Assembly (NCBI GenBank): GCA_016235865.1
Contig: JACRIK010000027.1
Location: forward strand, 26,213-90,212
Length of the DNA stretch: 64,000 nt
DNA from: Planctomycetota bacterium
Lineage (GTDB): Bacteria; Planctomycetota; MHYJ01; JACQXL01
Direction: 5' to 3'
Shown here: positions 320 to 55,633 of the stretch, in pieces
How positions within the stretch are numbered: the first letter of the stretch is position 1
Layout of the letters: the number at the start of each line of letters is the position of its first letter
Translations under genes and position numbers: made by a program
The notes under the pieces: model-generated
What the model was told of the DNA's origin: nothing
Databases searched by the model: none
The model's input: only the letters and a program-made list of their open reading frames with translations

Positions 320-365
320 CAGCCCACAGGGGGGGTACCCCGGGTATACCCACCCCCACCCCCCG
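320..365. repeat. G/C-homopolymer-run palindromic tract (gggggggtacccc, two gggtataccc palindromes, cccacccccacccccc)
   Basis: Read directly from the sequence. It lies immediately upstream of the 22-bp tandem array. Confidence 0.5.
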
Positions 366-398
366 GTATACCCGGTCTGGCTTTTGGGATAATATTAT

Positions 399-665
399 GT
401 TAGTTTTGGACTAACATAATCTTAGTTTTGAGCTAACATAACCTTAGTTTTGAGCTAACATAACCTTAGCTTTGAACTAACATAATCTTAGCTTTGAACT
501 AACATAACCTTAGCTTTGAACTAACATAATCTTAGCTTTGAACTAACATAACCTTAGCTTTGAGCTGACATAACCTTAGTTTTGAGCTAACATAATATCA
601 GTTTTGAACTAACATAACCTTAGTTTTGAGCTAACATAATATCAGTTTTGAACTAACATAATATT
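399..665. repeat. Tandem array of about 12 copies of a 22-bp unit (ttagttttgagctaacataacc and variants ttagctttgaactaacataatc, atcagttttgaactaacataat)
   Basis: Exact 22-nt periodicity is visible at 421-442 and 443-464. Units sit head to tail with no spacers. Confidence 0.9.
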
Positions 666-987
666 AGGCCACTCAGGCCGGGGTTTTTACACAAAATCCA
701 ATTTTTCTTGTCCGTTTTTGACTTAATTGGGGGCTAATTGCGGGGCAGTTTCTACCCTGATATTTAGGACTTTATTTTCATCCGTATATATGATATAGGG
801 GCTGATTGATATATCAATGCAGAAACCACGAATGGACACGCCCCTACGGGCGGGCGTAAGCCCGAATGAACGCTAATGGGATGCAGATGAATAAAATCTG
901 GATTCCCGCTTTCGCGGGAATGACATCTTTATAGTCCTTTGTGAACTTTGTGGTCTCCGTGGTGAATGCTTATTTGTTTTCCTTGGG

Positions 988-1024: not shown

Positions 1025-3136
1025 ATGGACTCCTTTAAATTAGTCAGCAGATTCAAGCCCTGCGGTGACCAGCCCCAGGCCATTAAGAAGCTCGTCGCGG
1101 GCATCAATGCGAATAAGCAGAATCAGGTTTTGTTGGGCGTGACCGGCTCAGGCAAGACATTCACTGTGGCTAATGCCATAGCCAAAGTCAATCGTCCGAC
1201 ACTGGTGATTTCACATAACAAGACCCTGGCCGCCCAGTTATACGCCGAGTTCAAGGAGTTTTTCCCGCATAACGCGGTGCATTATTTCGTGAGTTATTAC
1301 GATTATTACCAGCCCGAGGCCTATATCCCCCAGCGGGATATCTATATAGAAAAGGACGCGGCGATTAATGAGAATCTGGAGCGGCTGCGACTGGCCGCCA
1401 CCTCGGCCCTGCTGTCCCGGCGCGATGTGATTATCGTGGCCAGCGTTTCCTGCATCTACAATCTCGGCTCGCCTGAGGATTATGCCGGGATGGCGCTGCC
1501 GATTAAAAAGGGTGACCGGATGCCCAGGCGGGAGTTCCTGAAACGGCTGGTGGATATGCAATACGAGCGCTCGGAGACGGATTTCAAGCCGGGCAGTTTC
1601 CGGCTGCGGGGCGGCGAGATTATAGAGATTTTCCCGCCGTACCAGGATAATGCGCTCCGGATTATATTCGGCGATAAATTAGCCCCTCACCTATCCTCTC
1701 CCCAAGGGGGAGAGGGAAGGGTACGGGGAGATACCATAGAGCAGATTCTGATGGTGCATCCGCTGACCGGACAGACCATTTCAGCCCTGGACCAATACAT
1801 GCTTTTCCCGACCAAGCATTTTATCATTCCGGAAACCAAGGTGGCCCAAGGGGTGGAGTCCATCCGGCGCGAGCTGGAGTCGCATCTCAAGGCGCTCCAG
1901 AAGCAGGGCAAGGCGCTGGAGGCCCAGCGGCTCCAGAGCCGGACCAATTATGATTTGGAGATGATTGCGGAAATCGGGTATTGCAAGGGCATCGAGAACT
2001 ACGCCCGTCATTTCAGCGGCCGGCCGGCTGGGCAGAGGCCGACCACGCTGATTGATTATTTCCCGCCGGATTTCCTGACCCTGGTGGACGAGTCGCACGT
2101 GACTATCCCGCAGATACGGGGGATGTTCAACGGCGACCAGGCGCGCAAGAAGGTGCTGATAGAATACGGGTTCCGGTTGCCCTCGGCGCTGGATAACCGG
2201 CCGATGAAGTTTCCGGAATGGGAATCCTCGGTCAGGCAGCGGGTGTTCATCTCGGCCACGCCCGGTCCGTATGAAATGGGGCTGGCAAGCCCCATTAGAA
2301 ATGACACAACCGCTACTGATAATAATAATCGGGCGACAAAGACACCTGCCAAGGCGGGCATTTCTAACGGGGCAAGTAAGCCGGATGTGGTGGAACAGAT
2401 TATTCGCCCGACCGGATTGGTTGACCCGGCAATCATCATCAGGCCGATTACCGGGCAGATTGCCGACCTGCTCCAGCGGATTCAGCAGCGGATAAAATCC
2501 AATGAGCGGGTGCTGATTACCACACTGACCAAGCGGCTGGCTGAGGAGCTGTCATCCTATCTGCAGGAGAACCGGATAAAGGGCAAATACCTGCATTCGG
2601 ATATACATACGATTGAGCGGGTCAAGATTCTCAATGAACTGCGCCAGGGTAAGTTTGATGTCCTGGTCGGCGTGAATCTGCTCAGGGAAGGGCTGGACCT
2701 GCCTGAGGTGTCGCTGGTGGCGATTCTGGATGCGGATAAGGAGGGGTTCCTGCGTTCGGCTACATCCATTATCCAGACGGTCGGGCGGACGGCCCGGAAT
2801 GTCAATGGCGAGGTGGTGCTCTATGCGGACCATATGACTGATTCCATCAACCAGGCGATGAGCGAGACCACCCGGCGCCGGAATATTCAGCTGGCTTACA
2901 ATAAGAAGAATAATATTACGCCTAAGACCATCAAGAAGGAGATTCTTAAGGGGATTGAGATGGAAGACCGGGGCAGGGAGGTCTCGGCCCGGGCTATCGG
3001 GATGAAGTTAGAGGCGTATAAAGGGGTGGAGCTGGTTCGGGAACTGGAAAGAGAGATGTACGAGGCGGCTGAGAAGCTGGATTTTGAATACGCGGCTCAG
3101 GTCAGGGATACCATAAAGAAGATAAGGAAGAAGTAG
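1025..3136 (+). CDS. uvrB: Excinuclease ABC subunit B (UvrB), 703 aa, with two lineage-specific insertions
   Basis: N-terminus FKPCGDQPQAIKKL, Walker A GVTGSGKT, helicase motifs and a C-terminal UvrB/UvrC interaction helix (EYAAQVRDTIKKI). Length exceeds typical UvrB because of the inserts at aa 220-238 and about 422-455. Confidence 0.95.
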   Translation: MDSFKLVSRFKPCGDQPQAIKKLVAGINANKQNQVLLGVTGSGKTFTVANAIAKVNRPTLVISHNKTLAAQLYAEFKEFFPHNAVHYFVSYYDYYQPEAYIPQRDIYIEKDAAINENLERLRLAATSALLSRRDVIIVASVSCIYNLGSPEDYAGMALPIKKGDRMPRREFLKRLVDMQYERSETDFKPGSFRLRGGEIIEIFPPYQDNALRIIFGDKLAPHLSSPQGGEGRVRGDTIEQILMVHPLTGQTISALDQYMLFPTKHFIIPETKVAQGVESIRRELESHLKALQKQGKALEAQRLQSRTNYDLEMIAEIGYCKGIENYARHFSGRPAGQRPTTLIDYFPPDFLTLVDESHVTIPQIRGMFNGDQARKKVLIEYGFRLPSALDNRPMKFPEWESSVRQRVFISATPGPYEMGLASPIRNDTTATDNNNRATKTPAKAGISNGASKPDVVEQIIRPTGLVDPAIIIRPITGQIADLLQRIQQRIKSNERVLITTLTKRLAEELSSYLQENRIKGKYLHSDIHTIERVKILNELRQGKFDVLVGVNLLREGLDLPEVSLVAILDADKEGFLRSATSIIQTVGRTARNVNGEVVLYADHMTDSINQAMSETTRRRNIQLAYNKKNNITPKTIKKEILKGIEMEDRGREVSARAIGMKLEAYKGVELVRELEREMYEAAEKLDFEYAAQVRDTIKKIRKK
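1683..1731. repeat. Roughly 46-bp palindromic element inserted in frame within uvrB (cccctcacctatcctctcccc aag ggggagagggaagggtacgggg)
   Basis: Inverted repeat cctctcccc/ggggagagg. It encodes the extra peptide LAPHLSSPQGGEGRVRGD between the conserved IFGD and TIEQI segments. Its 21-mer is identical to the reverse complement of 45716-45736. Confidence 0.7.
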
Positions 3137-3347
3137 TGGTCAATTTTGCCACAGAGACACAGAGAACGCAGAGCGACTGCGGAGTAGATACGAAGCGAAC
3201 ACGGAGAAATGCAACCACGAATGGACACAAATAAACACGAAAGAGAACTCCGCAGAGACCGTGAAGCGAACACGAATGGCACGAATAGGAGCGAATTACA
3301 CGAATAATTATTAACCACAGATGAACACAGATGGGCGCGGATGATTT
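3137..3347. repeat. Intergenic spacer between convergent genes, built from reiterated octamer-like units (ccacagag, cgcagag, cacgaatg, ccacagat, acacagat): a REP-like repeat family
   Basis: Read directly. The same words and their reverse complements recur in other spacers (4020-4050, 13585-13656, 33590-33680, 34355-34425, 46480-46545, 55530-55620, 56740-56850). Confidence 0.5.
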
Positions 3348-4138: not shown

Positions 4139-6271
4139 TTACGCCAGATAGCCGTCGGTTTGAATCTTGCAGAGGTTGTGATAGACGCCCTTCTTTTCCA
4201 TCAGTTCCTGATGATTACCGGTTTCTTTTATCTCGCCTTTGTGGATGACATAGATGCGGTCAACATTCTGGATGGTTGATAACCGGTGCGCGATGATGAT
4301 AGAGGTCATTTTCTTGACCATCTTCTTAATGGCTTCCTGGATGTAATACTCGGTTTCCACGTCCACTGATGAGGTAGCTTCGTCCAGTATCAGGATAGAC
4401 GGTTCAAAGGCCATGGTCCGGGCGAATGCCAGCAACTGGCGCTGGCCGCCGGAAAGGGTCATGCCGCGCTCGCCGACCCGGCTGTCGTATTTGTTGGGCA
4501 TCTTCTCAATAAAGGTGGAAGCGAAGATATCCTCGCAGACGTCTTTTACTTTAGCCGGGGTGACGGCGCTATCCCAGAGCGAGATGTTGTCGTTGACCGT
4601 GCCGGCGAAGAGGAAGACATCCTGGAGCACGATGCCCAATCTGCGGCGCAGGTCCTGCTGGCTCATATCCTTGATGTTAATGCCGTCAATCAGAATCCGG
4701 CCTGAGTCGACATCATAGAATCGGCAGAGCAGATTGATAATTGTAGATTTGCCGCTGCCGGTCACGCCGACAAAGGCAATGCTTTCGTTCTTCTTTATCT
4801 TGAACGAGATGTTCTTCAGGACCGGCTTGCCCGGCTCGTATGAGAAGGTGACATTGTCAAACTCTATTTCGTGCCCCTGCGGGTCTTCTTTCAGTTCCCG
4901 GGGCAGGGCCGGGTTCCGGACATCAACCGGCGTATCCAGTATTTGGAAGATGCGCTCGGCCGAGGCCATGGCGCCCTGGAACATCAAATACTTATCAGCC
5001 AGGTCCTGAATCGGGCCGAAGAAGTTAATACTGTATTCCATAAACGTATAGATTACGCCGATTTCAATGACGTCGTTTAAAGCCAATCCGCCGCCGAAAT
5101 ATAAAATCAGGGCAATGACCGAGCCCCGGAGTATGGAGACCAGCGGTATAAAAGTTGACTGGTAAATCAGGGCCCGGCGGGACAGGTCATAGTGCTCATA
5201 ATTGATGCCGGAGAATTTATTGAGGGTCTTGGGCTCCTGATTGAATGACTGGATGACCTTTACGCCGGACAGGCTTTCAGCCAGATAGGCGTTTAATTGA
5301 GCCAGTTTCTTGCGCATGTCCCGGTAGGTGGTTCTTAATTTCGGTTTGAATATCATGGTTATGATGAGCAGGGGGATTACGGCGGACAGCGCAATCAACG
5401 CCAGTTTATAGTTCAGCCAAAACATGACAACTGCCAATACGACAATTATAAATATATCATTCACTACGGTAACCATGGCCGTGGAAAGGAAATCACCCAG
5501 AGCATTAACATCGTTAGTCACCCGGGTAATCAGCCGGCCGACCGGCTGTTTGTCATAAAAGCCCAGGGACATCTGCTGGAGATGCCCGAATGTTTTCATC
5601 CTGATATTAAAGATAATCTTTTGGCCCAGTTTTGACATGGAGTAATTCTGCCAGATGCTCAGGAGCAGGCAAATAACCAGATTGGCCAGGATAATCAGGG
5701 CGATAACGATAAACTGGCGCCGGTCAAACTTATCGGACGTAATCTTTAGTTGAGGGGTTTCGGCCGGGTATAGCAATTCCAGCGCATTTCGGTTGAGCCG
5801 TTTTATGACTTTCTCGCCTTGGGCTCCTTTTATCCGGCCGTAAAGATTGGCCAGGTCTTTAGCTGCCTTATCTGAACTTGGTTTTCTTATTGTGATTAAT
5901 TTTGCAATCGCGTCTTTTTGGTTTAGTAAATTATTGAGTTCCTCAACCGTATCATTCTGAATAACAACCCCATCTATCCTGAGCGCGTCACAGAGATTCT
6001 TGACGGAAAATTTGCCAGTATCAGTGGGGCTGATCGCGGGCTGGTCGGTAAATTCATTGTCAGAGAAGTCGGACACAGGCACAAGTTCATTTAACGCCAA
6101 ACCCTGTAATCTCGGGCCGAGGGCCACGGATAATATAGTCAGAACAAATGTCAGGAAGATAAGCACGATTATCTGTCCGGTAAAGGGCTTAGCAAAGACC
6201 AGGAGCCGTTTGGGCAGGCTCAGGTCATACTGCTTGTCAACAATGTCGTCTTCTTGGTGATACGCTTGCAT
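4139..6271 (-). CDS. ABC transporter, fused permease/ATPase (MsbA-like exporter), 710 aa, with a roughly 130-aa extracytoplasmic insert between TM1 and TM2
   Basis: Walker A GVTGSGKST, ABC signature LSGGQRQ, Walker B ILILDEATS, and six transmembrane helices in the N-terminal half. Confidence 0.85.
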   Translation of the reverse strand: MQAYHQEDDIVDKQYDLSLPKRLLVFAKPFTGQIIVLIFLTFVLTILSVALGPRLQGLALNELVPVSDFSDNEFTDQPAISPTDTGKFSVKNLCDALRIDGVVIQNDTVEELNNLLNQKDAIAKLITIRKPSSDKAAKDLANLYGRIKGAQGEKVIKRLNRNALELLYPAETPQLKITSDKFDRRQFIVIALIILANLVICLLLSIWQNYSMSKLGQKIIFNIRMKTFGHLQQMSLGFYDKQPVGRLITRVTNDVNALGDFLSTAMVTVVNDIFIIVVLAVVMFWLNYKLALIALSAVIPLLIITMIFKPKLRTTYRDMRKKLAQLNAYLAESLSGVKVIQSFNQEPKTLNKFSGINYEHYDLSRRALIYQSTFIPLVSILRGSVIALILYFGGGLALNDVIEIGVIYTFMEYSINFFGPIQDLADKYLMFQGAMASAERIFQILDTPVDVRNPALPRELKEDPQGHEIEFDNVTFSYEPGKPVLKNISFKIKKNESIAFVGVTGSGKSTIINLLCRFYDVDSGRILIDGINIKDMSQQDLRRRLGIVLQDVFLFAGTVNDNISLWDSAVTPAKVKDVCEDIFASTFIEKMPNKYDSRVGERGMTLSGGQRQLLAFARTMAFEPSILILDEATSSVDVETEYYIQEAIKKMVKKMTSIIIAHRLSTIQNVDRIYVIHKGEIKETGNHQELMEKKGVYHNLCKIQTDGYLA

Positions 6272-30529: not shown

Positions 30530-30949
30530 TTATTTCTTGTCCTGCTTCGCCCCGTCTTCTTTCAGCTTTTCCTCTAAGTGGTCTTTAAGGCGTTCCATTC
30601 TTTCTAATGATTTTTTGATATCGGTCTTGCCCTGTTTTTCCAGGATGAAATAGAACGAGTGGTTGTCCACAAAAGGATAAGGGATAAGGAGCATCATAAT
30701 ATCAAGCGGAAAAATCTGGAATATCGGGGCGCTGACTGGGATGATGGATTTATAGGTCTGGTAGCCGTCTTTTTCCAGCAGCACTTCGCGCTTGCCGTAG
30801 AAGGTGAAAGGCACCGAAAGCGGCGTAATGCCTTTATCCTGTCCGTCCAGCGTGACCTTTGCGCCGGCCGGTTCTGAGGTAATCAGAATCCGGTGCTCGG
30901 CGCAACTCACCAGCAGGATTGATAGAATAATTAAACCAATTAATCGCAT
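30530..30949 (-). CDS. PEGA-domain lipoprotein, 139 aa
   Basis: Lipobox LLVSC, then ILITSEPAGAKVTLDGQDKGITP (PEGA motif). Confidence 0.55.
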   Translation of the reverse strand: MRLIGLIILSILLVSCAEHRILITSEPAGAKVTLDGQDKGITPLSVPFTFYGKREVLLEKDGYQTYKSIIPVSAPIFQIFPLDIMMLLIPYPFVDNHSFYFILEKQGKTDIKKSLERMERLKDHLEEKLKEDGAKQDKK

Positions 30950-33390
30950 TTTCTCATTAACTCCCCGATTTTCTTATAGTCAGGATAAAACTCCTCCGCT
31001 TTAATAAGGAGTTCCTTGGCCCGGGATTTATTGCTCAATTCTAAATAAATCTCCGCCTGAGAGCAATAAAAATCAGCCAATACCTTGTTGCGTTCGCCGG
31101 AGGTCGTCCTCATGGTCAGCCGGATGGCCATATCGTATTCCCGCAATGCGGCGTCAGGTTGTTTCTGGGCGCGGTATCCTTTGGCTAGGTAATTATGTAG
31201 CTGGATGCTCTCCGGTTCCAGATAGACCGCGTCTTGCAGGAGCGCTACCAGTTTATCGTACTGCTTCAGCGAAACGTAGTGTTTGGCCAGCTTCATCCGG
31301 TTGGTGAAATCCAAGTGATTAATCTTGATTAACTCCTCTATCTCGGCATACATCTGGTCTGTCTGTTTTTGTTCTTCATAAATGGAAATCAGGTAGTGGT
31401 AGGGGCTGAAACCCGCTTTGGCATAATGCGGAAAGTATTGCTTGGCCTTTATGAATTCGGCAATCGCCTCATTAGTCTTGTTGCGCTTGTATAACTCCCG
31501 GGCATTGTTGAACGTCTTCTCGAACTCCTTGAAATTGATGCCCTTGAGAAACTCATTGTTAAAATAGTCGAAGAACTCCTTATCAAATCCTTCCACGTTT
31601 TTATCCAGGCATTCCTTGAAAATCGTTTCGGTATCCTTACCCGCGCCCCAGCCTTTAAGCATCTTGATAATCGTTTCCATCCCGTATTTATGGTGGAGGT
31701 ATTCTATGATGACCGAACTCAGGTAATAAGAATGGGTTACGTCGGCGTCCCGGCGGTCCACGAAATCAGTCAGGTGTTTGAGCTTGTTCTCCGAGATGGC
31801 CTTGACTAGGTCGTCCTCAATCTCCTCGCCCCAGGCCGGGTTATAGAGTTTCTCGGCATAGACCGAGCAGCCCTCGGTGAACCAGCGCGGCACGCGGAAC
31901 CGGCTCATTTGCAGGGTGATGATGTGCATAAATTCGTGCACCGTAATAGAGCCCCAGTGGAAACGCTCGGCCATCTGTTCCTGGGCCTTGGGCGATAAAA
32001 CCAGGAAGGTTTGGGCAAAGCACACCCCGCGCGCCGCGATAAATCCCGGAAAGCCCATCAGCCGGACCGAGAAATCATTGTGGTTCGGAAAGGCCTCAAC
32101 CAGCAACGGCGTTATCGGCTTGTATTGATAGAGCGTGGTGAACTTATCATAGGCGTCCTCCAGCAACTCCGGCATATACGGCTCCAACAGGAAGCGCTCG
32201 TCCTTGTGCATCTTAATCTCAAAATCCCCGGTCTTGACTATCTCAAACTCATCCCGGAGCGCATCCAGGACCTTGAGCATATTGTGGACCTTGACGTTGA
32301 ACGGGTCGCGGGCAAAGGCCTCGCCCAATAATTTTCGGCCTTGCATTTCATAGTCTGGACCGAGGTGCATATAATTGAATCCGGTGGCAGTCCGGGCGTC
32401 CCAGAGATGCCCGTCCAGGGTCAGCGCCTTTTCATAGAATCCGGTTGCCTCCATATAAAACAGTCGCCGGTCTAAATTATCTCCGATAATCAGATAGAAC
32501 AACGCCGGATTCCTGTTCACCTCCAGGATTGCCCGGCATTCCTTGTCAAACTCCGGCATCTTGTTGGTGAGATAATAAATGCTGGCCCTGGTAGCCCGGT
32601 ATGAGACCGAATTAGGGTTAATGGACAGGGATTTATTAACGGTATCAAGCGCGTTGGAAAACTGCTCGTTCATCAATTGGACCGTAGCCAGGAGATTATA
32701 GGCTTCAGCCTGGACTGAAAGAAGGGGTAATACGGTTGATACGGTAGAGGATGTGGCTCCTGTTTTGTCGTCAGGCGGGGATGATAAACTCAGAGCCATA
32801 TTGATATTATAAAGATTCTTTTCCCGGTCCCAGATGGCAAAATAGGTCTTGGCCAGGCCGAGATATGCCTCGGCCGAAGACGGATTTGTCTTCGAAGTGT
32901 CGGTGAAGCACCCGGCCGCGGCCGGCAGGTCGCCCTTCTCCAGATAGCAATTGCCCCAGAACGTATAGAGCGCCGAGCGTAATGATGGTTCTGTTGCCGA
33001 TTTCTCTATCTGAGGCAGTAAATCACGTACCACCTTCTGGAAAATATCCTTATCGCCCTGGCGCGTGGCATACAGCCAGGTGCCCTGGGCCAGCCAGAGC
33101 AGTTCCTGGGGTTTGAGTTTAGATGATGCTGATTCGGTTATGGCCGGAAAATACTCCAGCAGTGTTTCTGCCTTCTGGTATTCTCCGGTCTCCAGATAGA
33201 GATGGCTCAGGACCAGGCGGGTGAAGAGGTTGTCAGGCAATCTGGTCAGGACTTTTTGAGCATCACTGATGGCTTTTCGGTATTCGCCCTTGATGGCTGA
33301 GGCAATGAAATCGTCAGTATCTTCTGCGTGAGAAAAGAGAGGATTCACCACAAAGGCACAAAGGACACAAAGAGGAAATAAGTATTTCAT
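30940..33390 (-). CDS. Secreted TPR-repeat protein with an HExxH (HEFMH) metallopeptidase-like motif, about 816 aa from the start MKYLFPL
   Basis: Signal-peptide-like N-terminus and multiple TPR-like helical repeats. The longer ORF to 33489 would run into the tRNA-Ser gene, so the internal start was chosen. Confidence 0.6.
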   Translation of the reverse strand: MKYLFPLCVLCAFVVNPLFSHAEDTDDFIASAIKGEYRKAISDAQKVLTRLPDNLFTRLVLSHLYLETGEYQKAETLLEYFPAITESASSKLKPQELLWLAQGTWLYATRQGDKDIFQKVVRDLLPQIEKSATEPSLRSALYTFWGNCYLEKGDLPAAAGCFTDTSKTNPSSAEAYLGLAKTYFAIWDREKNLYNINMALSLSSPPDDKTGATSSTVSTVLPLLSVQAEAYNLLATVQLMNEQFSNALDTVNKSLSINPNSVSYRATRASIYYLTNKMPEFDKECRAILEVNRNPALFYLIIGDNLDRRLFYMEATGFYEKALTLDGHLWDARTATGFNYMHLGPDYEMQGRKLLGEAFARDPFNVKVHNMLKVLDALRDEFEIVKTGDFEIKMHKDERFLLEPYMPELLEDAYDKFTTLYQYKPITPLLVEAFPNHNDFSVRLMGFPGFIAARGVCFAQTFLVLSPKAQEQMAERFHWGSITVHEFMHIITLQMSRFRVPRWFTEGCSVYAEKLYNPAWGEEIEDDLVKAISENKLKHLTDFVDRRDADVTHSYYLSSVIIEYLHHKYGMETIIKMLKGWGAGKDTETIFKECLDKNVEGFDKEFFDYFNNEFLKGINFKEFEKTFNNARELYKRNKTNEAIAEFIKAKQYFPHYAKAGFSPYHYLISIYEEQKQTDQMYAEIEELIKINHLDFTNRMKLAKHYVSLKQYDKLVALLQDAVYLEPESIQLHNYLAKGYRAQKQPDAALREYDMAIRLTMRTTSGERNKVLADFYCSQAEIYLELSNKSRAKELLIKAEEFYPDYKKIGELMRKCD

Positions 33391-33406
33391 TTGTCTGAAA
33401 ATAGAA

Positions 33407-33495
33407 CGGAGGGAGTGAGATTTGAACTCACGGTCCACCATAAGGCAGACACCCGCTTTCGAGGCGGGCCCTTTCAACCACTCAGGCATCCCTCC
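33407..33495 (-). tRNA. tRNA-Ser (anticodon CGA), 89 nt with a long variable arm
   Basis: Reverse complement GGAGGGATGCCTGAGTGGTTGAAAGGGCCCGCCTCGAAAGCGGG ... GTGAGTTCAAATCTCACTCCCTCCG. Acceptor GGAGGGA/TCCCTCC and anticodon loop CUCGAAA. Close to E. coli serU in layout. Confidence 0.85.
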
Positions 33496-33680
33496 GTGTT
33501 TAAGGCCGCCGCTTTTTAGAGCCAGTTAGACCTATGGTCGTTACTGGCTCTTATCCCGATTACTCATCGGGGCAACCACTCAGCAACCTCTCCGTAAGAA
33601 AATTAGCCACAGAGTCGCAGAGTTCACAGAGAGTAATTAACTCCGTGTTCTCCGTGCCTCTGTGGCTATTTATTAGTATA

Positions 33681-36054: not shown

Positions 36055-36151
36055 AATTATCGCCTACACCTCAACTATCTATGGCTATCTGATGGGTAGT
36101 GATGCATTATAACATTTTTTGACGCTCCCCCGTCTTATATGAACAGGTAGC

Positions 36152-36410
36152 GCTTATCATACCAAGAAACGGCGCCTACGATACCAAGCAGTATGGTATA
36201 TAACTATCAGAACTGGGGTTTAGTTTACCAAGAAATAGGGCTTACCATACCAAGAAGAGGCGCTTTATTTACCAAAAAGATGGGCTTATCATACCAAGAA
36301 CAGGGGCTTTAGCTATCAAGCAGTATGGTATATAACTATCAGAACCGGGGCTTAAGTTACTAAGAAATATGGCTTATTATACCAAGAGTTAGGGCCTATA
36401 ATATCAATAA
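36152..36410. repeat. Tandem repeat array with 22-bp base period (units like ataccaagaaNNgggcNtta) organised as two roughly 132-bp higher-order copies. A G/C-run tract lies at 36411-36450
   Basis: gcttatcataccaagaa recurs at 36152 and 36284 (132 = 6 x 22). The array is followed by gggcggggggttagtctaatgggggtggggcacctcccccc. Confidence 0.8.
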
Positions 36411-36539
36411 GGGCGGGGGGTTAGTCTAATGGGGGTGGGGCACCTCCCCCCTGCCAAAGTAAGTGGTTGATTTATATGGGGATGGGGAAACGGAAATAGC
36501 CGAAAATAGATATTTTGAATGGTTTCTTAAGAGGAAAAG

Positions 36540-45136: not shown

Positions 45137-46273
45137 ATGCTGTATTTCCGTATCATTGACGTCAATGCCAATCGGGCGCGGGAGGCAACCCGGGTTATAG
45201 AGGATTACGCCCGCTTTATCCTGGAGGATGCGGTCTTGAGCGCCAAGGCCCGGAGCATTAGGCATCAATTAGTAAATATCCTCAAGCCCTGCGCTCGGCA
45301 GATGCTGGCCAGCCGGGATATTCAGGCCGATATCGGCAAGGAAACCGCGACATCAGCCAAGACAACCGCTGAGATTGTCATCAGTAATCTCCGCCGGTTA
45401 AGCGAGTCATTACGCAGTATTTCAGAGTATTCTAAAACTATTATTAAAGATAATCTGTGTAAATCTGCTTGCACTGAGCAAAGCGAATGTGTGTCATCTG
45501 TGGTTAGGGATGTTGAACGCCTGCGCTTTGAGGCATACCAATTAGAACAGGAATTCTCATTTATCCTCTATCCTAACAAGGCATTTGATAAGGTGCGTCT
45601 TTATGTGTTGGTGCCGGGCATCCGGAACGATAAGATTATCAGGGATTTGATTAAGGGAGGAGCAGGTGCTATTCAATTAAGAGTAAATACCCCCTCACCC
45701 TTCCCTCTCCCCTGTGGGGAGAGGATAGGTGAGGGGAGCGGTACCGAATCATTAACCGACAAGAAATTATTGGAGCTGGCTGTAAAGTTTCGGAAGATTA
45801 CCAGAGCGCATCAGGCCTTGTTTATTATCAATAACCGGATTGATATTGCTTTGTTGAGCAATGCAGACGGCGTGCATCTGGGCGCCACTGATTGTTCTGT
45901 CCGTGACGCTCGCAAAATATTAGGGCCGGATAAGATTATCGGCGCCACCAGCCATTCCATTGCCGAGGCGCTGGACGCCCAGCGGAACGGGGCTGATTAC
46001 GTCTCGGTCGGTCCGATGTTCTCGTCGCCCACCAAGCCGCATCTGGCGCTGGTTGGGTTCAGTTATCTCAAGGAGGTGGCCAGGAAGATACATATTCCCT
46101 ATGTGGCTATCGGCGGCATCACCGCAAGAAATCTGCCGGTTCTGTTGAAGGCGCATAAGAGGTTATTTAAAGAACCGCTCAAGATTGCGGTTTCATCGGG
46201 GATTCTCAACAGCAAGAATGTATCAGAAGCAACAAGGCGGATAAATAAAATACTTAACCACAAGGGACATTAA
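45137..46273 (+). CDS. thiE: Thiamine-phosphate synthase (ThiE) domain with an unrecognised roughly 160-aa N-terminal domain, 378 aa. The ThiE domain is interrupted in frame by a palindromic element
   Basis: ThiE motifs AIQLR ... FIINNRIDIAL ... ADGVHLG ... IGATSHS ... GADYVSVGPMF. The insert VNTPSPFPLPCGERIGEGSGTES sits directly after QLR. Confidence 0.75.
   Translation: MLYFRIIDVNANRAREATRVIEDYARFILEDAVLSAKARSIRHQLVNILKPCARQMLASRDIQADIGKETATSAKTTAEIVISNLRRLSESLRSISEYSKTIIKDNLCKSACTEQSECVSSVVRDVERLRFEAYQLEQEFSFILYPNKAFDKVRLYVLVPGIRNDKIIRDLIKGGAGAIQLRVNTPSPFPLPCGERIGEGSGTESLTDKKLLELAVKFRKITRAHQALFIINNRIDIALLSNADGVHLGATDCSVRDARKILGPDKIIGATSHSIAEALDAQRNGADYVSVGPMFSSPTKPHLALVGFSYLKEVARKIHIPYVAIGGITARNLPVLLKAHKRLFKEPLKIAVSSGILNSKNVSEATRRINKILNHKGH
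45691..45736. repeat. 46-bp palindromic element inserted in frame within thiE (cccctcacccttccctctcccc tgt ggggagaggataggtgagggg). It is the inverse-orientation copy of the uvrB element
   Basis: The 22/21-nt arms are reverse complements of each other. Positions 45716-45736 are the exact reverse complement of uvrB 1683-1703. Confidence 0.75.
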
Positions 46274-47478: not shown

Positions 47479-47715
47479 ATGAATAAAGAAAGAGCGCTGG
47501 CGGTTTTTGAAGATTATAAAATCCGCCGGATATATGATGAGGCGTCAGCCACCTGGTTCTTTTCATTGGTGTATATCATCGGGGCGCTGATTCAGCAGAC
47601 GGATTATAAATCGGACAGAAACTATTGGAAGGTCTTAAAGAATCGACTAAATAAAGAAGGCAGTGAGTCGGTTACAAAATGTAACCAACTGAAACTAGCC
47701 GACGCGATAAAGTAA
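47479..47715 (+). CDS. Small protein (78 aa) resembling the N-terminal Bro-N/KilA-N-like domain of DNA-damage-inducible protein D (DinD), apparently truncated
   Basis: FEDYKIRRIYDEASATWFF ... DYKSDRNYWKVLKNR is similar to E. coli DinD FEEIRHYGTEGQEFWSARELAPLLDYRDWRNFQKVLARA (from memory). Good Shine-Dalgarno sequence aggag. Confidence 0.4.
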   Translation: MNKERALAVFEDYKIRRIYDEASATWFFSLVYIIGALIQQTDYKSDRNYWKVLKNRLNKEGSESVTKCNQLKLADAIK

Positions 47716-47815
47716 AGTGTCATCGGAATTAACCTATCCCCTGCAACCTATTTTGGTCTGTTTTTGACGCTACCCTTTGATTTATCTGCACTTATCCCAA
47801 TTTCCGTTAAAAAAA

Positions 47816-47842
47816 GGTGGGGGAGGGGGTATGGTGGGGGGT
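47816..47842. repeat. G-run tract ggtgggggagggggtatggtgggggg (potential G-quadruplex-forming) directly upstream of the third 22-bp array
   Basis: Four G runs of 5-6 nt, read directly. Confidence 0.5.
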
Positions 47843-47851
47843 AGTACCCTT

Positions 47852-48137
47852 GGCGCTACGGAGGTACGTTATCGGCGCTATGGAGGCACGTCACCGGCCC
47901 TACAGAGGTGCATTCCAGGCGCTACAGAGGTGCATTCCAGGCACTACAAAGGTATATTCCAAGCATTACGAAGGTATATTCCAAGCGCTACAAAGGTATT
48001 CTCCAGGCATTACGAAGGTATGCTTCCGGCGCTACGAAGGTATGCTTCTGGCGTTACAGAGGTATGCTCCAGGCGCTACAGAGGTATGCTTCCGGCGCTA
48101 CGGAGGCACGTCACCGGCGCTATCATCGGTGTATGCT
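47852..48137. repeat. Tandem array of about 13 copies of a 22-bp unit (ggcgctacagaggtatgcttcc and variants) immediately upstream of the Type III mod gene
   Basis: Exact 22-nt period across 47852-48137. The three overlapping ORF-track entries 47777..48151, 47817..48218 and 47908..48186 are reading-frame artefacts of the repeat. Confidence 0.9.
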
Positions 48138-48223
48138 CACCATACGGATAGGAGGGCAAAAAACAAAGTATTTATTGCTTTTTTAATGAAGGCGGGTATG
48201 ATTATTACAAAGGAGTAATATTT

Positions 48224-49810
48224 ATGCCATCACTAAATTTTAAGGGTAAGAATGCAGTTTGGAATCATCATTTGTCCGTTCCATACCAGATACTGGAAAA
48301 GGATAAGAAGCTGTCACTCAAAGGCAAGAATGAGGATGAGAACCTGATTATAGAGGCGGATAATCTGGTCGCGCTAAAAAGCTTGTTACCGAAATATCAG
48401 GGCCGGATAAAGTGTATTTACATAGACCCGCCATATAATACCGGCAATGAAAATTGGGTTTATAGCGATAATGTCAGCAGTCCGTTAATAAAAGAATGGC
48501 TAAAAAAAGGGCCTGTTGGTTCTGAGGATTTAACCCGTCACGACAAATGGCTTTGTATGATGACGCCTCGCCTTAAACTTCTTCGTGAATTGATGAGTGA
48601 GGATGGTGTCATATTTGTTAGTATTAACGACATTGAGAGTTCTCATGTGCGTATGCTAATGGATGATATATTTAATGGTAATTTTATTGGTATGTTAATA
48701 TGGAGGAAAAAAGAGGGTGGAGGACAGACTGACGATTACTTTGTAACGGAACATGAGTATGTTCTTGCGTATGCTAAATCGCCAGATTTTAAATGGGTTG
48801 ATGAAACAATTCCGATAGATGAGGCAAAATTCAAGAAAGAAGATAATGACGGAAGATTTACTGCGGTTAAACTTGCTAAATGGGGTTCTGGAGCACGGAA
48901 AGAAGATCGGCCAACGATGCATTTTGCAATAAAATCTCCCGACGGTAAAAATGTGTATCCAAAAGCACCAGATGGGAGTGCTGGAAGGTGGCGCGTTGGG
49001 AAATTAACAATGGATAATCTTCTGGAAAATGGATTAGTCTACTGGGAGGAAAAAAATGGCGATTGGGTGGCCTACGAGAAAATCTATTATGACGAAGAAG
49101 ACGTTAAGACAATTAAAGAACGGAGCATACTATACGAATTAGCTTCTACTGGTGATGCCACGAAGGCGCTAACTGAGTTATTTGGGAAAAAGGATATATT
49201 TGAAAATCCTAAGCCAGTTGAACTTACTAAATTCTTAATGCGATATACCACTGATAAATCTTCAATTATTCTTGATTCCTTTGCTGGTTCGGGAACAACA
49301 GCCCAGGCGGTTTTAGAGTTAAATAAAGAAGATGGTAAGGAGGGGAATAGGAAAGTCATTTTAATTCAACTGCCAGAAGAAATTAGGAAAGATAAGCCAG
49401 CATATAAGGCTGGGTATAGATATGTTCACGAGATTACAAGAGAGCGCGTTAAACGAGTGATTGAAAGAGATAAATTGGGTGTTGGCTTTTCATACATGAA
49501 TCTTGGATCACAGATTGATGCGGATTCTATCTTATCAGGCAAGTTGCCAACCTATAAAGAGTTTGCCAAGTATGTTTATTATCTGGCAACCGGAAAGACA
49601 GGCAACGAGTCAATTTACCTTATATATGAAAAGGACAAGGACAAACTAAAGAAGCTGGCAATTACGCTTGAATGGGCAGAGCAGACAAACAAGAAAGACA
49701 AGGGCAAGAAGATTATCTATGCCCCGGCCTGTTTCATAGATGAAGAATACCTGGAGAAGTTTAATATCCATTTTGTGAGTATTCCTTATAATCTCTTTGA
49801 AAAGAAATAG
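48224..49810 (+). CDS. mod: Type III restriction-modification system methyltransferase (Mod), N6-adenine, beta-class, 528 aa
   Basis: Motif IV DPPYNTGN N-terminal to motif I DSFAGSGTT. Strong Shine-Dalgarno sequence aaggag. Followed 3 nt later by the res gene. Confidence 0.85.
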   Translation: MPSLNFKGKNAVWNHHLSVPYQILEKDKKLSLKGKNEDENLIIEADNLVALKSLLPKYQGRIKCIYIDPPYNTGNENWVYSDNVSSPLIKEWLKKGPVGSEDLTRHDKWLCMMTPRLKLLRELMSEDGVIFVSINDIESSHVRMLMDDIFNGNFIGMLIWRKKEGGGQTDDYFVTEHEYVLAYAKSPDFKWVDETIPIDEAKFKKEDNDGRFTAVKLAKWGSGARKEDRPTMHFAIKSPDGKNVYPKAPDGSAGRWRVGKLTMDNLLENGLVYWEEKNGDWVAYEKIYYDEEDVKTIKERSILYELASTGDATKALTELFGKKDIFENPKPVELTKFLMRYTTDKSSIILDSFAGSGTTAQAVLELNKEDGKEGNRKVILIQLPEEIRKDKPAYKAGYRYVHEITRERVKRVIERDKLGVGFSYMNLGSQIDADSILSGKLPTYKEFAKYVYYLATGKTGNESIYLIYEKDKDKLKKLAITLEWAEQTNKKDKGKKIIYAPACFIDEEYLEKFNIHFVSIPYNLFEKK

Positions 49811-49812
49811 AT

Positions 49813-52299
49813 ATGATTCTAAAGGATTATCAGATAGAGGTCATCGATAAACTAAAAGAGTTCTATACCGAGGCGGAAAAACAAAAGAGCGAGGTAGAGA
49901 AGTCAAATGATAAGGTTTTAAGAGAATCTGTTTCTTATGTTGATACTGTTTATACTAAGCTTGACCTGCATTTTGCCGACCGGCCTAAGAACGGCTTAGG
50001 ACAATCATATACCCGTTTTTGCCTGAAGATTCCGACCGGCGGGGGCAAGACCCTATTGGCAATTGAGGCCATCCGGGAATACCAAAACCTATTCGCCAAG
50101 AAAAGAACCGGGTTAGTGGTTTGGATAGCGCACCGCGAGACCATCTACCGCCAGACCATAGAGAAACTCAGGGATAAAAATCATATCTACCGCCAGTGGC
50201 TGGACCAATGCAGCGGCAACCGGACCATTATTCTGGAAAAAGGACAGCCGTTACGGATGCAGGACACGGACAGCAATCTGGTGATTCTGATGCTGATGAT
50301 TCAGTCGGCCGGAAAGAAAACCAAGGAAAATATGAAGGTCTTTCAGGACAGCGGCAAATATATTGACTTCTTCCCGCCGGATAACCAATACGAGGAGCAT
50401 GAAAAACTATTAAGGAGGGTCCCTAATCTTGATCCTACCCCTGGTGATGTATTCGGCAAGAGAATAATAAAGACCAGTTTAGGCAACATAATCAGGATGG
50501 AGAATCCGCTTATGATTGTGGATGAATTCCATACGATGTTTTCGGATATTGCCAAAAGCACGTTGGACGGCTTAAACCCATCAATGATAATCGGACTGTC
50601 GGCTACGCCCAAAAAACGGGAGGGCATGAATATTTTTATAGAAATTACGGGCAAGGCGCTTAAGGACGAGGAGATGATTAAATTAGATATGCACCTGCAT
50701 TCGCCGACTACCAGCGGAGATTGGCATGAAATGATTAACAGCGTCAGAAAGAAAAGGGAGACGTTGGAAAAGACAGCGACTGACTTTAACCGTAATAAGG
50801 GGATATATATCAGGCCGATAGCATTGATACAGGTAGAGCGAACGGGTAAAGACCAGAGGGGAAAAGAATTTGTGCACAGCGAGGATGTGCGCGAATATCT
50901 GGTTGCGCAAGGAGTTCCGGCTCATCAAATCGCGGTAAAATCAAGCGAAATGGATGAGATTAAAGAGGAAAAACTCTTATCGCAGACAAGCGAAATCAGA
51001 TACATCATTACCAAAGAGGCGTTAAAAGAGGGCTGGGATTGTTCATTTGCCTATGTTTTAGGGGTGATACCCAATGCCAGGTCTGAATCCTCAATGACCC
51101 AGTTGGTCGGCCGGATATTACGCCAGCCGTATGCCAAGAAGACCGGGGTGGCGGAATTGGATGAAAGTTATGTCTATTTTAACCAGGGCGATACGGAAGA
51201 TGTCCTGCATAACATCCAGCGCGGATTTGTAGAGGAGGGTTTGGGCGATTTGGTCCAGAATATCAGCCGGGAATCAGGCCCGACCGGCTCGGACAAGATA
51301 AAAACAAAGATTAAGAAAGATATTCTCAATAAATATCCTGAGTCGTTATATCTGCCGGTCTGGCTGGTTAAGGAAGATAACAAATACCGGCGGTTCTCTT
51401 ATGATATTGATATCAGGCCCAGGATTAACTGGCAAAACGGGCATTACGATAAATGGCTGGAAAAAGAAATCCTGCCTTTGCTTAGCGCGAAATCATCCGC
51501 TTATGAATATATAGTTGATTTGGACAATCGGCATGAAAGGCGGGATTTGGATGAGATGGATGAGGGCGTTTTTGATATTTCATACCTAACCCGCCGGATA
51601 TCCGATGTGGTTGATAATGCCTTTATTGCCTTTGACCTGGCTCAGGAATTTATCTCGGCCGGCGATAAATACAAAGACAGGCAAAAACTGCTAATCAACA
51701 GTGGATTCATTATCAAGGAAATCGTCAAGAAGTTGTCAGATGAAAAAATCCAGCAAGAGCAATTAATATTTGATTCATTACTGAAAGGCAAGGAATTAAT
51801 GCTGGCGGTCAGCGATGACGAGCAGGTCGGGTATTCGTTGCCGAAAAATAATGAGGTCTATCCGGAATATGCCGAGACATATAAACTGAATCTTTTTGAG
51901 AAGTCGGATATAAAATCAATGAATTCGCTGGAGCGGAGAATTGCCGGTTCTATTGATAATAAGAAAAATGTAATCTGGTGGGCGCGGAATATAGCCAGCA
52001 GCAGGAAATGGTATGCCATAAGAGGTTGGAAGAGAGGCAAAATCAGGCCTGATTTTATCGTGGCCAGGAAGAATAAAAGCGATGCGTTGGAACTCGTTTA
52101 TATCATTGAGAGCAAGGGCGAACATTTAATTGGCAATCCGGATACGATTTATAAAAAGAGCGTATTTGATAAGATGAATCAGGAAACCATTGAACAGGTA
52201 ACCCTGAAACTAATCAAGTTTAAGCTGAATAAGGACTTTAGGTTTGAACTGGTTGAGCAGGGACAGGAAGATATTGAGATAAACAGATTCTTTAATTAA
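49813..52299 (+). CDS. res: Type III restriction enzyme Res subunit (SF2 helicase domain plus C-terminal PD-(D/E)xK nuclease), 828 aa
   Basis: Motif I KIPTGGGKT, motif II MIVDEFH, helicase C-domain, and C-terminal RPDF ... ELVYIIESKGEH endonuclease motif. Confidence 0.85.
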   Translation: MILKDYQIEVIDKLKEFYTEAEKQKSEVEKSNDKVLRESVSYVDTVYTKLDLHFADRPKNGLGQSYTRFCLKIPTGGGKTLLAIEAIREYQNLFAKKRTGLVVWIAHRETIYRQTIEKLRDKNHIYRQWLDQCSGNRTIILEKGQPLRMQDTDSNLVILMLMIQSAGKKTKENMKVFQDSGKYIDFFPPDNQYEEHEKLLRRVPNLDPTPGDVFGKRIIKTSLGNIIRMENPLMIVDEFHTMFSDIAKSTLDGLNPSMIIGLSATPKKREGMNIFIEITGKALKDEEMIKLDMHLHSPTTSGDWHEMINSVRKKRETLEKTATDFNRNKGIYIRPIALIQVERTGKDQRGKEFVHSEDVREYLVAQGVPAHQIAVKSSEMDEIKEEKLLSQTSEIRYIITKEALKEGWDCSFAYVLGVIPNARSESSMTQLVGRILRQPYAKKTGVAELDESYVYFNQGDTEDVLHNIQRGFVEEGLGDLVQNISRESGPTGSDKIKTKIKKDILNKYPESLYLPVWLVKEDNKYRRFSYDIDIRPRINWQNGHYDKWLEKEILPLLSAKSSAYEYIVDLDNRHERRDLDEMDEGVFDISYLTRRISDVVDNAFIAFDLAQEFISAGDKYKDRQKLLINSGFIIKEIVKKLSDEKIQQEQLIFDSLLKGKELMLAVSDDEQVGYSLPKNNEVYPEYAETYKLNLFEKSDIKSMNSLERRIAGSIDNKKNVIWWARNIASSRKWYAIRGWKRGKIRPDFIVARKNKSDALELVYIIESKGEHLIGNPDTIYKKSVFDKMNQETIEQVTLKLIKFKLNKDFRFELVEQGQEDIEINRFFN

Positions 52300-52335
52300 T
52301 AGGGGGAATACCCCTCCTTTCTCTAATGTAAAACT

Positions 52336-55472: not shown

Positions 55473-55633
55473 GAAATGCGGAATGCGGGGTGCGGAATTA
55501 ACCGTGCCCCGCTTCCCTTTAATTAAAACAAAATACGAACACGAATGGGACGAATAGGAACGAATGGTACGAATGAATATTATTCGTGTGATTTATCTTA
55601 ATTCGTGTGATTCGTGTTAAAAGGAGTTGATTT

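Follow-up and report, generated by a model that had tools for sequence, protein, structure and literature searches.

What are the arrays of 22-bp tandem repeats that lie beside clusters of G runs and C runs at three places in one stretch of a Planctomycetota chromosome? The stretch, hereafter the window, comprises 64,000 nucleotides of contig JACRIK010000027.1 (assembly GCA_016235865.1, positions 26,213 to 90,212). The initial annotation of this DNA had described three arrays built to the same plan with unrelated units, and had offered for them arrays of protein-binding sites of the iteron or centromere type, a promoter-spacing device for phase variation or a structured non-coding RNA. What we describe here is a lineage-specific, non-coding composite element at the level of the DNA, recognisable by its architecture, its pattern of conservation, its exact phasing and its restriction to one lineage. 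From the comparison of its copies it is established that an anchor is under selection while the sequence of the repeats turns over fast, the period, phase and number of units being held. Protein binding, and any cellular role, are what we infer from these properties.

Tandem Repeats Finder returned array 1 at 400-667 (period 22, 12.2 copies, 89% matches), array 2 at 36160-36387 (period 22/44) and array 3 at 47852-48122 (period 22, 12.3 copies). In a sliding autocorrelation over the whole window (lags 5-69), the lag-22 signal was confined to these three arrays, where the periodicity is exact, and a densely packed set of G and C runs, referred to below as a tract, adjoins each of them: T1 (329-377), T2 (36408-36455) and T3 (47817-47850). 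The three arrays on one plan, as first noticed, are thereby confirmed. The sole other periodic stretch of the window, at about 55.6-56.2 kb, is a 30-bp repeat within an open reading frame (ORF); this periodicity of 10 amino acids (aa) extends over 55646-56175 in a 364-aa ORF (55634-56728) that has no Pfam match.

T1 (GGGGGGGTACCCCGGGTATACCCACCCCCACCCCCCGGTATACCCGG), the palindromic anchor of array 1, is composed of G7-TA-C4, GGGTATACCC, C5-A-C6 and GGTATACCCGG, and carries a perfect 11-nt inverted repeat in which 340-350 pairs with 365-375. Of the two copies of the palindrome that had been claimed, one is exact (GGGTATACCC), whereas the second reads cGGTATACCCgg. A degenerate unit (TGGCTTTTGGGATAATATTATG, 378-399), which falls on the 22-bp grid in the alignment with the related locus L002, links T1 to array 1 (400-667, 12.2 copies of TTAGTTTTGAACTAACATAATC), so that the array begins directly at its tract. 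The unit of array 1 is a dyad with 9-bp arms (ATGTTAGTT-N3-AACTAACAT), and 44-bp sub-patterns (c-d-c-d, f-g-f-g) indicate duplication in two-unit blocks. Array 3 (47852-48137) consists of 12 units and a partial 13th of GGCGCTACRRAGGTAYGYTYCM, with end units that are alike and central units that are more A/T-rich; it adjoins T3 (GGTGGGGGAGGGGGTATGGTGGGGGGTAGTACCC, 47817-47850), which is G-rich on the plus strand and shows the run pattern of T1 on the minus strand. Array 2 (36138-36407) comprises about 12 degenerate units of TACCAAGAANNNGGGCTTANNN and includes a 132-bp higher-order duplication. Its tract, T2 (GGGCGGGGGGTTAGTCTAATGGGGGTGGGGCACCTCCCCCC), likewise has the run pattern of T1 on the minus strand, where it reads G6-AGGTG-C4-A-C5...C6. 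The order of tract followed by array, originally taken as part of the plan, holds for arrays 1 and 3, but T2 sits to the right of array 2. Since its consensus unit has stops in all six frames, array 1 is non-coding; a coding array 3 is unlikely, as an ORF would need to cycle through three frames.

The same plan recurs in relatives. Loci from related Planctomycetota metagenome-assembled genomes and metagenome contigs, fetched via homologues of UvrB, ThiDE and the aminotransferase, contained five more tract-plus-array elements: L002 (1577-1920), the orthologue of array 1 upstream of uvrB; L003 (200-457), upstream of uvrB as well, with a different tract (GGTGGGGGATACGGTATCCCCCC); L004 (2560-2851), downstream of uvrB, with units GGGGGTATCTAYTAGTAG and tract GGGGGGATATCCCCCGGGATATACGGGTATATCCCCCTCCCCC; L062 (5500-5780), whose tract is the reverse complement of T3; and L082 (2600-2912), with the tract GGGGGGATACCCCACCCCCC and, after it, 12 very degenerate units. 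When the C-rich strand is placed on top, all tracts follow one order: a G run of 3-7, then a short core, centred on A/T and often a perfect palindrome (GGGGTACCCC, GGGTATACCC, GGGGGATATCCCCC, GGGGGATAC-G-GTATCCCCC), then C runs of 4-6 with one to a few bases between them. An artefact of assembly, a doubt raised when the arrays were first noticed, is excluded because independent assemblies from other samples share the architecture at all five loci. A 'solo tract' in L077 proved on inspection to be a BoxC-like palindromic element outside this tract family.

A census of tandem arrays with a period of at least 10 and at least 4 copies gave, in about 193-208 kb of DNA from the clade, periods of 21 or 22 only; outgroup genomes (about 196 kb) contained one 21-bp array, and viral contigs (about 500 kb) held arrays of many other periods, none of 22. 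Clusters of G and C runs number 18 in about 208 kb of clade DNA and 0 in the outgroup, and the tract-plus-array plan was found neither in the outgroup genomes nor in the viral contigs. All eight period-22 arrays of the clade abut such a cluster. If about 15 clusters are spread over 208 kb, a given array end has a chance of roughly 1% of falling no more than 30 bp from one of them, so an association in 8/8 cases cannot be coincidence. The element occurs about once per 20-25 kb of chromosome in this uncultured Planctomycetota lineage, and the early remark that three such arrays are unusual for a bacterial chromosome is strengthened by the comparative data. In the literature, we found no description of tract-anchored 22-bp arrays in Planctomycetota, and the element fits none of the repeat families known so far.

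The phasing of the units is exact. Autocorrelation peaks fall precisely at 22, 44 ... 176 bp in 8/8 arrays, with the lags at +/-1 at background level, even at 40-60% unit identity. The 11 anchor motifs of L003 are each exactly 22 bp apart, 13 TA anchors of array 3 stand on an exact 22-bp grid from 47856 to 48120, and the anchors of L082 are at 0 modulo 22 across 220 bp; on the anchor grid of array 2 (36160-36402), two units are shifted by +1, the grid being regained right after each. The number of units is 10-13 in every array, and the length is the same in the window and in L002, that is, in two species. With typical bacterial indel-to-substitution ratios, ordinary substitution at this divergence would bring several uncompensated indels per array; no uncompensated insertion or deletion was seen. 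A length of 21-22 bp corresponds to two helical turns, and the data point to a ruler of two helical turns, which may lie in the function of the arrays or in the generation of the repeats.

Dyad-symmetric units occur in half of the arrays, namely array 1, L004 and three 21-bp arrays of L062. A TA step, although common to the eight 22-bp arrays, is lacking in two of the 21-bp arrays, and we do not rely on it as a universal kink site. The 21-bp arrays of L062 follow one another over 4658-5275, with about 9-10 copies each, about 230 bp from the 22-bp array, and no G/C tract directly adjoins them. Their units each hold a short dyad (GGGAGGTCTCCC, ACCAGGGCTGGT or ATACA-N6-TGTAT); the first two of these arrays overlap a 169-aa ORF and would encode heptad repeats.

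To gauge conservation, the 4-fold degenerate sites of adjacent genes were used as a neutral yardstick. Identity at these sites is 90% between the window and L002, 71% between the window and L062 (in the neighbouring thiDE gene) and 66% between L004 and L082. T3 and its counterpart in L062 (5743-5780, minus strand) are identical at 31/31 positions, amid surroundings, repeat units included, that cannot be aligned. At 71% neutral identity, the probability of such a match is by our calculation 0.71^31, or about 2e-5, which argues that the tract is under purifying selection. Array 1 and the L002 array align without gaps and in register over 13 units, the TTAG that opens each unit staying in register throughout, yet their identity is 58% as compared with the neutral 90%; moreover, the array is homogeneous in the window and heterogeneous in L002. 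Between non-orthologous arrays, the similarity of the consensus units does not exceed that of shuffled controls, and only the pair formed by array 1 and L002 stands out, with 16/22; the units of the three window arrays are thus as unrelated as had been supposed. We infer that duplication and gene conversion, acting on single units or on blocks of two, drive the turnover of the units, with the frame and the total length kept. Variation within arrays 1 and 3 is rich in transitions (20:3 and 44:11, respectively), while the ratio is about 1:1 in the other arrays, and the window and L002 arrays differ by 50 transitions and 80 transversions; in view of the last two observations, transition-biased editing or deamination was dropped as an explanation.

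The surroundings of the arrays are those of a chromosome. A Pfam scan covered the 51 main ORFs, which are all candidate genes of the window apart from uvrB and the ABC-transporter genes, themselves recognised from homologues. The genes are ordinary chromosomal ones (ribonucleotide reductase, TruD, Dus, Mur ligase, TadA, LpxK, ThiDE, DapB, CTP synthase), and no rep, par, transposase, integrase, relaxase or cas gene was found among the 51 ORFs. Array 1 is located between divergent genes, upstream of uvrB; array 2, together with T2, between convergent genes, flanked by the 3' ends of genes for a Ser/Thr kinase and an aminotransferase; and array 3 between tandem genes, a small ORF and the mod gene of a type III restriction-modification system. 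An array can lie to either side of its tract, and depending on the copy it is the G-rich or the C-rich strand of the tract that faces it. In the orthologous spacer between uvrB and the M48 gene, L004 and L082 carry the tract on the same strand and the arrays on opposite sides.

Other conserved modules accompany some of the elements. A leader-like module (47739-47807, plus strand) precedes T3 and is about 80% identical over 68 nt to L003 121-189 (nhmmer E-values 7e-21 and 5e-24), where it lies before a different tract and array at a different locus, next to uvrB. A search of metagenomes of the Joint Genome Institute (JGI) with the leader pattern gave a single, chance match inside a coding gene. 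The module M40 (TTTACACAAAATCCAATTTTTCTTGTCCGTTTTTGAC, 686-722, plus strand) is identical at 36/40 positions to 1759-1795 on the minus strand of L080, a non-orthologous locus at a contig end, and its 3' part resembles the 5' part of the array 3 leader; it probably belongs to a multi-copy upstream module, not to the tract-array unit. Between array 1 and uvrB, a box (TACCCTGATATTTAGGACTTTATTTT, 753-778, plus strand) is conserved at 24/26 positions in L002 (1998-2023), and a related motif (ACCCTGATA) lies just upstream of the uvrB promoter in L081; the box is probably a feature of the uvrB upstream region and not of the array. As these modules stand in varying order relative to tract and array, they are treated as separate multi-copy upstream modules, and the minimal element is the tract plus the array.

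Three contigs stop at or near a present or expected element: L003 starts at a G-rich tract upstream of its element, L080 ends 45 nt past M40 and L081 starts 78 bp upstream of uvrB. These three independent contig ends suggest that the repeats break short-read assemblies. The G-rich tract at the contig end of L003 (20-118, about 95 nt) contains many G4-G8 runs with strong G-quadruplex potential and is located upstream of the uvrB-adjacent leader, tract and array.

The explanation that we tentatively favour is a DNA-level element in which a selected anchor, structure-prone or bound by protein, is combined with a platform of sites two helical turns apart. The anchor would be a tract of 35-50 bp, made up of a G run of 5-7, an A/T-centred palindromic core (GGGGTACCCC, GGGTATACCC, GGGGGATATCCCCC) and at least two C runs, which would either be recognised by a protein or adopt a non-B structure such as a hairpin or cruciform, an intrastrand triplex or, in some copies, a G-quadruplex. 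Some 12 units, each exactly 22 bp in length, would start directly at the tract, on either side of it, and would arise and be remodelled by block duplication and gene conversion, leading to fast drift and a locus-specific sequence. A factor nucleated at the tract may bind or oligomerise along the sites, and the resulting nucleoprotein platform would work like iterons or plasmid centromeres, albeit without a Rep or Par partner and outside any plasmid. Among the functions proposed at the outset, phased protein-binding sites fit best, considering the exact phase in 8/8 arrays and the narrow copy number, although the binding itself is presumed. One may go further and imagine a chromosome-wide system, doubtful as this seems to us, in which the G/C-run anchor recruits a machine with a 22-bp ruler that builds the phased array of about 12 units or rewrites its repeats. 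Phased nucleoprotein arrays could then be nucleoid-organising or centromere-like sites placed every 20-25 kb; alternatively, the machine could write or rewrite spacer-less 22-bp repeats beside the anchor through a repeat-duplicating integrase or polymerase activity, in concept akin to the duplication of repeats in CRISPR arrays without the uptake of spacers.

Several observations weigh against the anchored platform. The match between T1 and L002 1580-1614 (34/35 identical) is, taken alone, no higher than the neutral expectation of 90%. The Pfam scan of the window identified no binding protein, the flanking genes being unrelated housekeeping genes, and because the units differ between arrays there can be no single sequence-specific binder, so that binding would have to be based on structure or spacing. 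L001, with a UvrB that is 95% identical, has no element upstream of uvrB, and array 2 is missing beside aminotransferase orthologues of 78-95% identity; the elements are dispensable on short time scales. Furthermore, the eight 22-bp arrays, three from the window and five from relatives, are a small sample, and for array 1, which is very homogeneous, the precise number of copies depends on a short-read assembly. A canonical G-quadruplex motif (four runs of at least 3 G, loops of 1-7 nt) is present on the minus strand of T1 (349-373) and of the L002 tract; with loops of up to 12 nt it is also found in T2 and the L082 tract, and by either definition it is absent from T3 and from the tracts of L003, L004 and L062. 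Such a motif thus belongs to some copies and is not family-wide.

The main rival is the view that the arrays are a by-product of instability or a selfish minisatellite. A structure-prone tract would stall replication, and template switching or slippage would regenerate functionless 22-bp debris, the ruler being that of the replication or repair machinery or reflecting the common descent of all copies. We consider this possible, if on balance unlikely. It would account for the change of side that the array shows, relative to a tract of constant strand, between L004 and L082, for tract-proximal units that resemble the tract in L003 (CCATACCCCT), L004 (GGGGGTATC) and array 2, for the 44-bp and 132-bp higher-order duplications within arrays, and for presence or absence between close relatives at gene-order breaks or beside a restriction-modification island. 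It is also in keeping with the many other small palindromic repeats of the genome, including BoxC-like triplex motifs that lie even in frame in uvrB and thiDE; G/C-rich intrastrand triplex motifs have been linked to local rearrangement in E. coli (PMC4666352). Slippage alone, however, predicts neither a single exact period in 8/8 arrays nor a phase maintained through 40-50% unit divergence, and it does not predict a narrow copy number or an identical length in two species; with the tract under purifying selection, at least this part is not junk. A non-coding RNA gene, with tract and array co-transcribed over about 330-400 nt and the 22-nt units acting as a protein sponge or as unit-length small RNAs, is in our opinion improbable. 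T-rich stretches or weak hairpins followed by U do occur after arrays in the tract-to-array direction (667-690, 48160-48186 and L003 460-480), and the elements stand alone in intergenic DNA in any orientation to genes. In addition, array 1 folds far better than its shuffles (z of -8.6 and -7.6 on the two strands), which is owed to the 9-bp-arm dyads of its units, while arrays 3 (-2.85/-0.16) and 2 (+1.1/+1.4) show no excess structure. Rfam, applied at gathering thresholds to the window and four related loci and in E-value mode to arrays 1 and 3, returned only two tRNAs in the window and chance-level miRNA matches in array 1. Scans for promoters and terminators around the three arrays gave no consistent signal, and the end of array 1, which resembles a terminator, lacks conservation in L002. 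Moreover, transcription of the tract would yield G-rich RNA from some copies and C-rich RNA from the rest, and an exact global phase is not required by a role as RNA. Since the tract faces the array with either strand and from opposite sides, a single tract-plus-array transcript with a fixed RNA motif is unlikely; the lack of RNA structure in arrays 2 and 3 and the variable strand of the tract argue against any role at the RNA level, and the structured RNA first suggested is not a property of the family.

Mobility offers another explanation, which we regard as quite improbable: a transposable element of the miniature inverted-repeat class (MITE) with an internal minisatellite, of the BrickBuilt type, whose ends would be the tract, leader and M40 and whose transposase would act in trans. 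Modules do recur at non-orthologous loci, as the array 3 leader (about 80% identity to L003) and M40 (36/40 to L080) illustrate, and the elements occur between genes, in multiple copies, within one lineage and with variable presence; BrickBuilt itself has 23-nt head-to-tail repeats, a leader, a tail and 19 intergenic copies (PMC4596501). The copies described here, unlike those of BrickBuilt (PMC4596501), have no common repeat unit, and the leader is common to array 3 and L003 only. No conserved terminal inverted repeats were found, with no such pair around array 3, and no target-site duplications either, for which no empty-site comparison was available; a single 12-nt inverted-repeat pair flanks array 1 (314-325 with 799-810) and was rejected as transposon ends because it is not conserved in L002. 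The window contains no transposase, and the order of modules varies between copies. There remain the plasmid-derived iterons or centromeres and the promoter-spacing switch, highly improbable explanations that are already largely refuted. A 22-bp spacing is typical of the iterons of theta plasmids (R6K gamma origin, pPS10, F, P1), all three arrays consist of direct repeats of this length, and in their number, about 12, the tandem repeats bring to mind sopC, the centromere of plasmid F. The array 3 leader contains a sequence (TTATCCCAA) that matches a DnaA box at 7/9 positions; it is not present at arrays 1 and 2, though no systematic scan was made. Against this stand the housekeeping context and the absence from the window of rep, par, relaxase and integrase genes, with neither parA/parB nor parM/parR next to an array and no Par-family match at all. 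Sensitive blastn searches gave no match for arrays 1-3 among 72,556 plasmids and none for arrays 1 and 3 among 50,697 phages. In viral contigs, a gapped G6...CCACCCCCA...C6 pattern and an 18-nt leader core had unrelated matches only, without 22-bp arrays, and three exact patterns (two tract types and M40) had none. Membership of the iteron or centromere class is therefore unsupported, all the more so as the units differ between arrays. A phase-variation switch could be envisaged for array 3, upstream of a type III mod gene, a class that is often phase-variable. Arrays 2, L004, L082 and L062 lie between or beside the 3' ends of genes, where promoter spacing is irrelevant; the convergent, divergent and tandem contexts, together with the same copy number in two species, make such a switch unlikely.

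How does the element relate to systems already described? The closest described object is the BrickBuilt MITE of Porphyromonas gingivalis, which has one shared 23-nt unit, IS5-like terminal inverted repeats and a copy number of 1 to 22.8 (Klein et al. 2015, PMC4596501). Both are built of imperfect units of about 22-23 nt, head to tail and without spacers, with conserved non-repeat flanks (in BrickBuilt, the leader and tail), and both are strictly intergenic, present in many copies per genome, confined to one lineage and found in any orientation to genes. In our case, by contrast, units differ from one non-orthologous array to the next, terminal repeats were not found, the copies number about 10-13 and the conserved module is a palindromic G-run/C-run tract that directly abuts the array. 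Iterons, as in the R6K gamma origin, pPS10, RK2, F and P1, are groups of 3-9 repeats beside a rep gene, DnaA boxes and an unwinding element. The arrays would resemble them as DNA-level binding arrays of direct repeats of about 22 bp with adjoining G+C-rich and A+T-rich segments, and differ in having about 12 units and no rep gene, in lying at many loci of a housekeeping chromosome with different units, and in showing no similarity to plasmids. Plasmid centromeres built of tandem repeats (12 x 43 bp in sopC of F, 10 x 11 bp in parC of R1, 20-bp repeats in parC of pSK41) assemble a higher-order nucleoprotein complex. They share with our arrays some 10-12 phased direct repeats, often with internal dyads, whereas here there are no parA, parB or parR neighbours and several arrays with unrelated units occur within 64 kb.

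The tract itself recalls the BoxC/TM_ECO elements (Holder et al. 2015, PMC4666352), with at least three blocks of G or C runs, short loops, and multi-copy, intergenic, locally rearranged loci. The published ITxF/TM_ECO criteria specify three consecutive compatible blocks with stems of 6-15 nt and loops of 1-6 nt; read by eye, our tracts consist of one G run followed by at least two C runs, with blocks of 4-7 nt and some loops above 6 nt, and so would appear to fall outside them. TM_ECO elements, moreover, are not attached to tandem arrays, and the true BoxC-like elements of the window (1683-1728 and 45690-45736) are separate features. A conserved end sequence followed by a regular array, with a more and a less conserved part in every unit, is reminiscent of CRISPR. 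CRISPR repeats, however, measure 23-47 bp and alternate with unique spacers of similar length; here there are no spacers, the head-to-tail period of 22 bp leaves no room for both a repeat and a spacer, the window has no cas genes, and the variable parts change by substitution and duplication, not by acquisition. ToxI, the antitoxin RNA of type III toxin-antitoxin systems, is made of 36-nt tandem repeats or, more widely, of 2-5.5 copies of 34-45 nt. Its repeats are likewise non-coding, head to tail, constant in length and intergenic. Unlike ToxI, the arrays have 12 copies of 22 nt, no conserved promoter or terminator was found, and no toxin gene lies downstream, the genes there being uvrB, the aminotransferase gene (convergent) and the mod methylase gene. 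All in all, we place the finding among the intergenic minisatellites or composite repeats of bacteria, with a real possibility that it is something more.

The lineage carries a heavy load of small repeats besides. BoxC/TM_ECO-like palindromic G/C-run elements (for example CCCCTCACCTATCCTCTCCCC-AA-GGGGGAGAGGGAAGGGTACGGGG) lie inside coding sequence in uvrB (1683-1728), in thiDE (45690-45736) and at L001 1946-2017. The element in UvrB is an in-frame insertion of about 20 aa after '...NALRII', absent in P0006 and P0007 and of different length in P0002 and P0004. In-frame insertions of palindromic elements are known from Rickettsia, and the UvrB insertion resembles these. A second in-frame insertion in UvrB (ASPIRNDTTATDNNNRATKTPAKAGISNGAS, about 2285-2375, residues about 421-450) is common to P0002 and absent in P0004, P0006 and P0007; its '...PAKAGI...' looks like a translated copy of the intergenic repeat GGATTCCCGCTTTCGCGGGAATGAC (window 898-925). 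The intergenic multi-copy words CACGAATGGACACG, CACAGAGA and GGATTCCCGCTTTCGCGGGAATGACA and the terminator hairpins CCCGATGYTGCATCGGG are abundant, with sites at 826-925, 3113-3305 and 55475-55617 in the window, at 1100-1150 in L001 and at 1390-1740 in L080. A Hin-type recombination half-site in GTTTTTGAY was judged coincidental, being a half-site only.

Array 3 forms the left edge of a low-GC island (48224-54183, 38-45% G+C). The island encodes Mod and Res of the type III restriction-modification system, as well as a 615-aa protein that matches no Pfam family. In L062, the corresponding interval, from dapB to the ABC_tran_2 gene, is occupied by other genes, with the tract and array at its opposite edge. 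Just upstream of the array 3 leader, a 78-aa ORF (47479-47715) without a Pfam hit may be a gene fragment at the island edge; we take it to resemble the N-terminal part of Bro-N or DNA-damage-inducible protein D-like proteins. Elsewhere in the window, an 849-aa TPR/peptidase ORF (30940-33489), called mechanically, overlaps tRNA-Ser(cga) (33406-33496), so that its true start must lie further downstream.

Whatever their origin, these elements mark breakpoints of gene order and the edges of genomic islands, are easily mistaken in annotation for CRISPR-like or iteron arrays, and seem to break short-read assemblies. Should they be a by-product, they would represent a natural structure-prone motif that generates tandem duplications of fixed length, with a slippage ruler that is directly testable. 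If, on the other hand, the arrays are functional, they would constitute a new element of bacterial chromosome architecture in which the geometry (two turns per unit, about 12 units), and not the sequence, is selected. Such an element would bear on the evolution of phased protein-DNA assemblies without sequence conservation, as well as on the organisation of the unusually condensed nucleoids of Planctomycetota.

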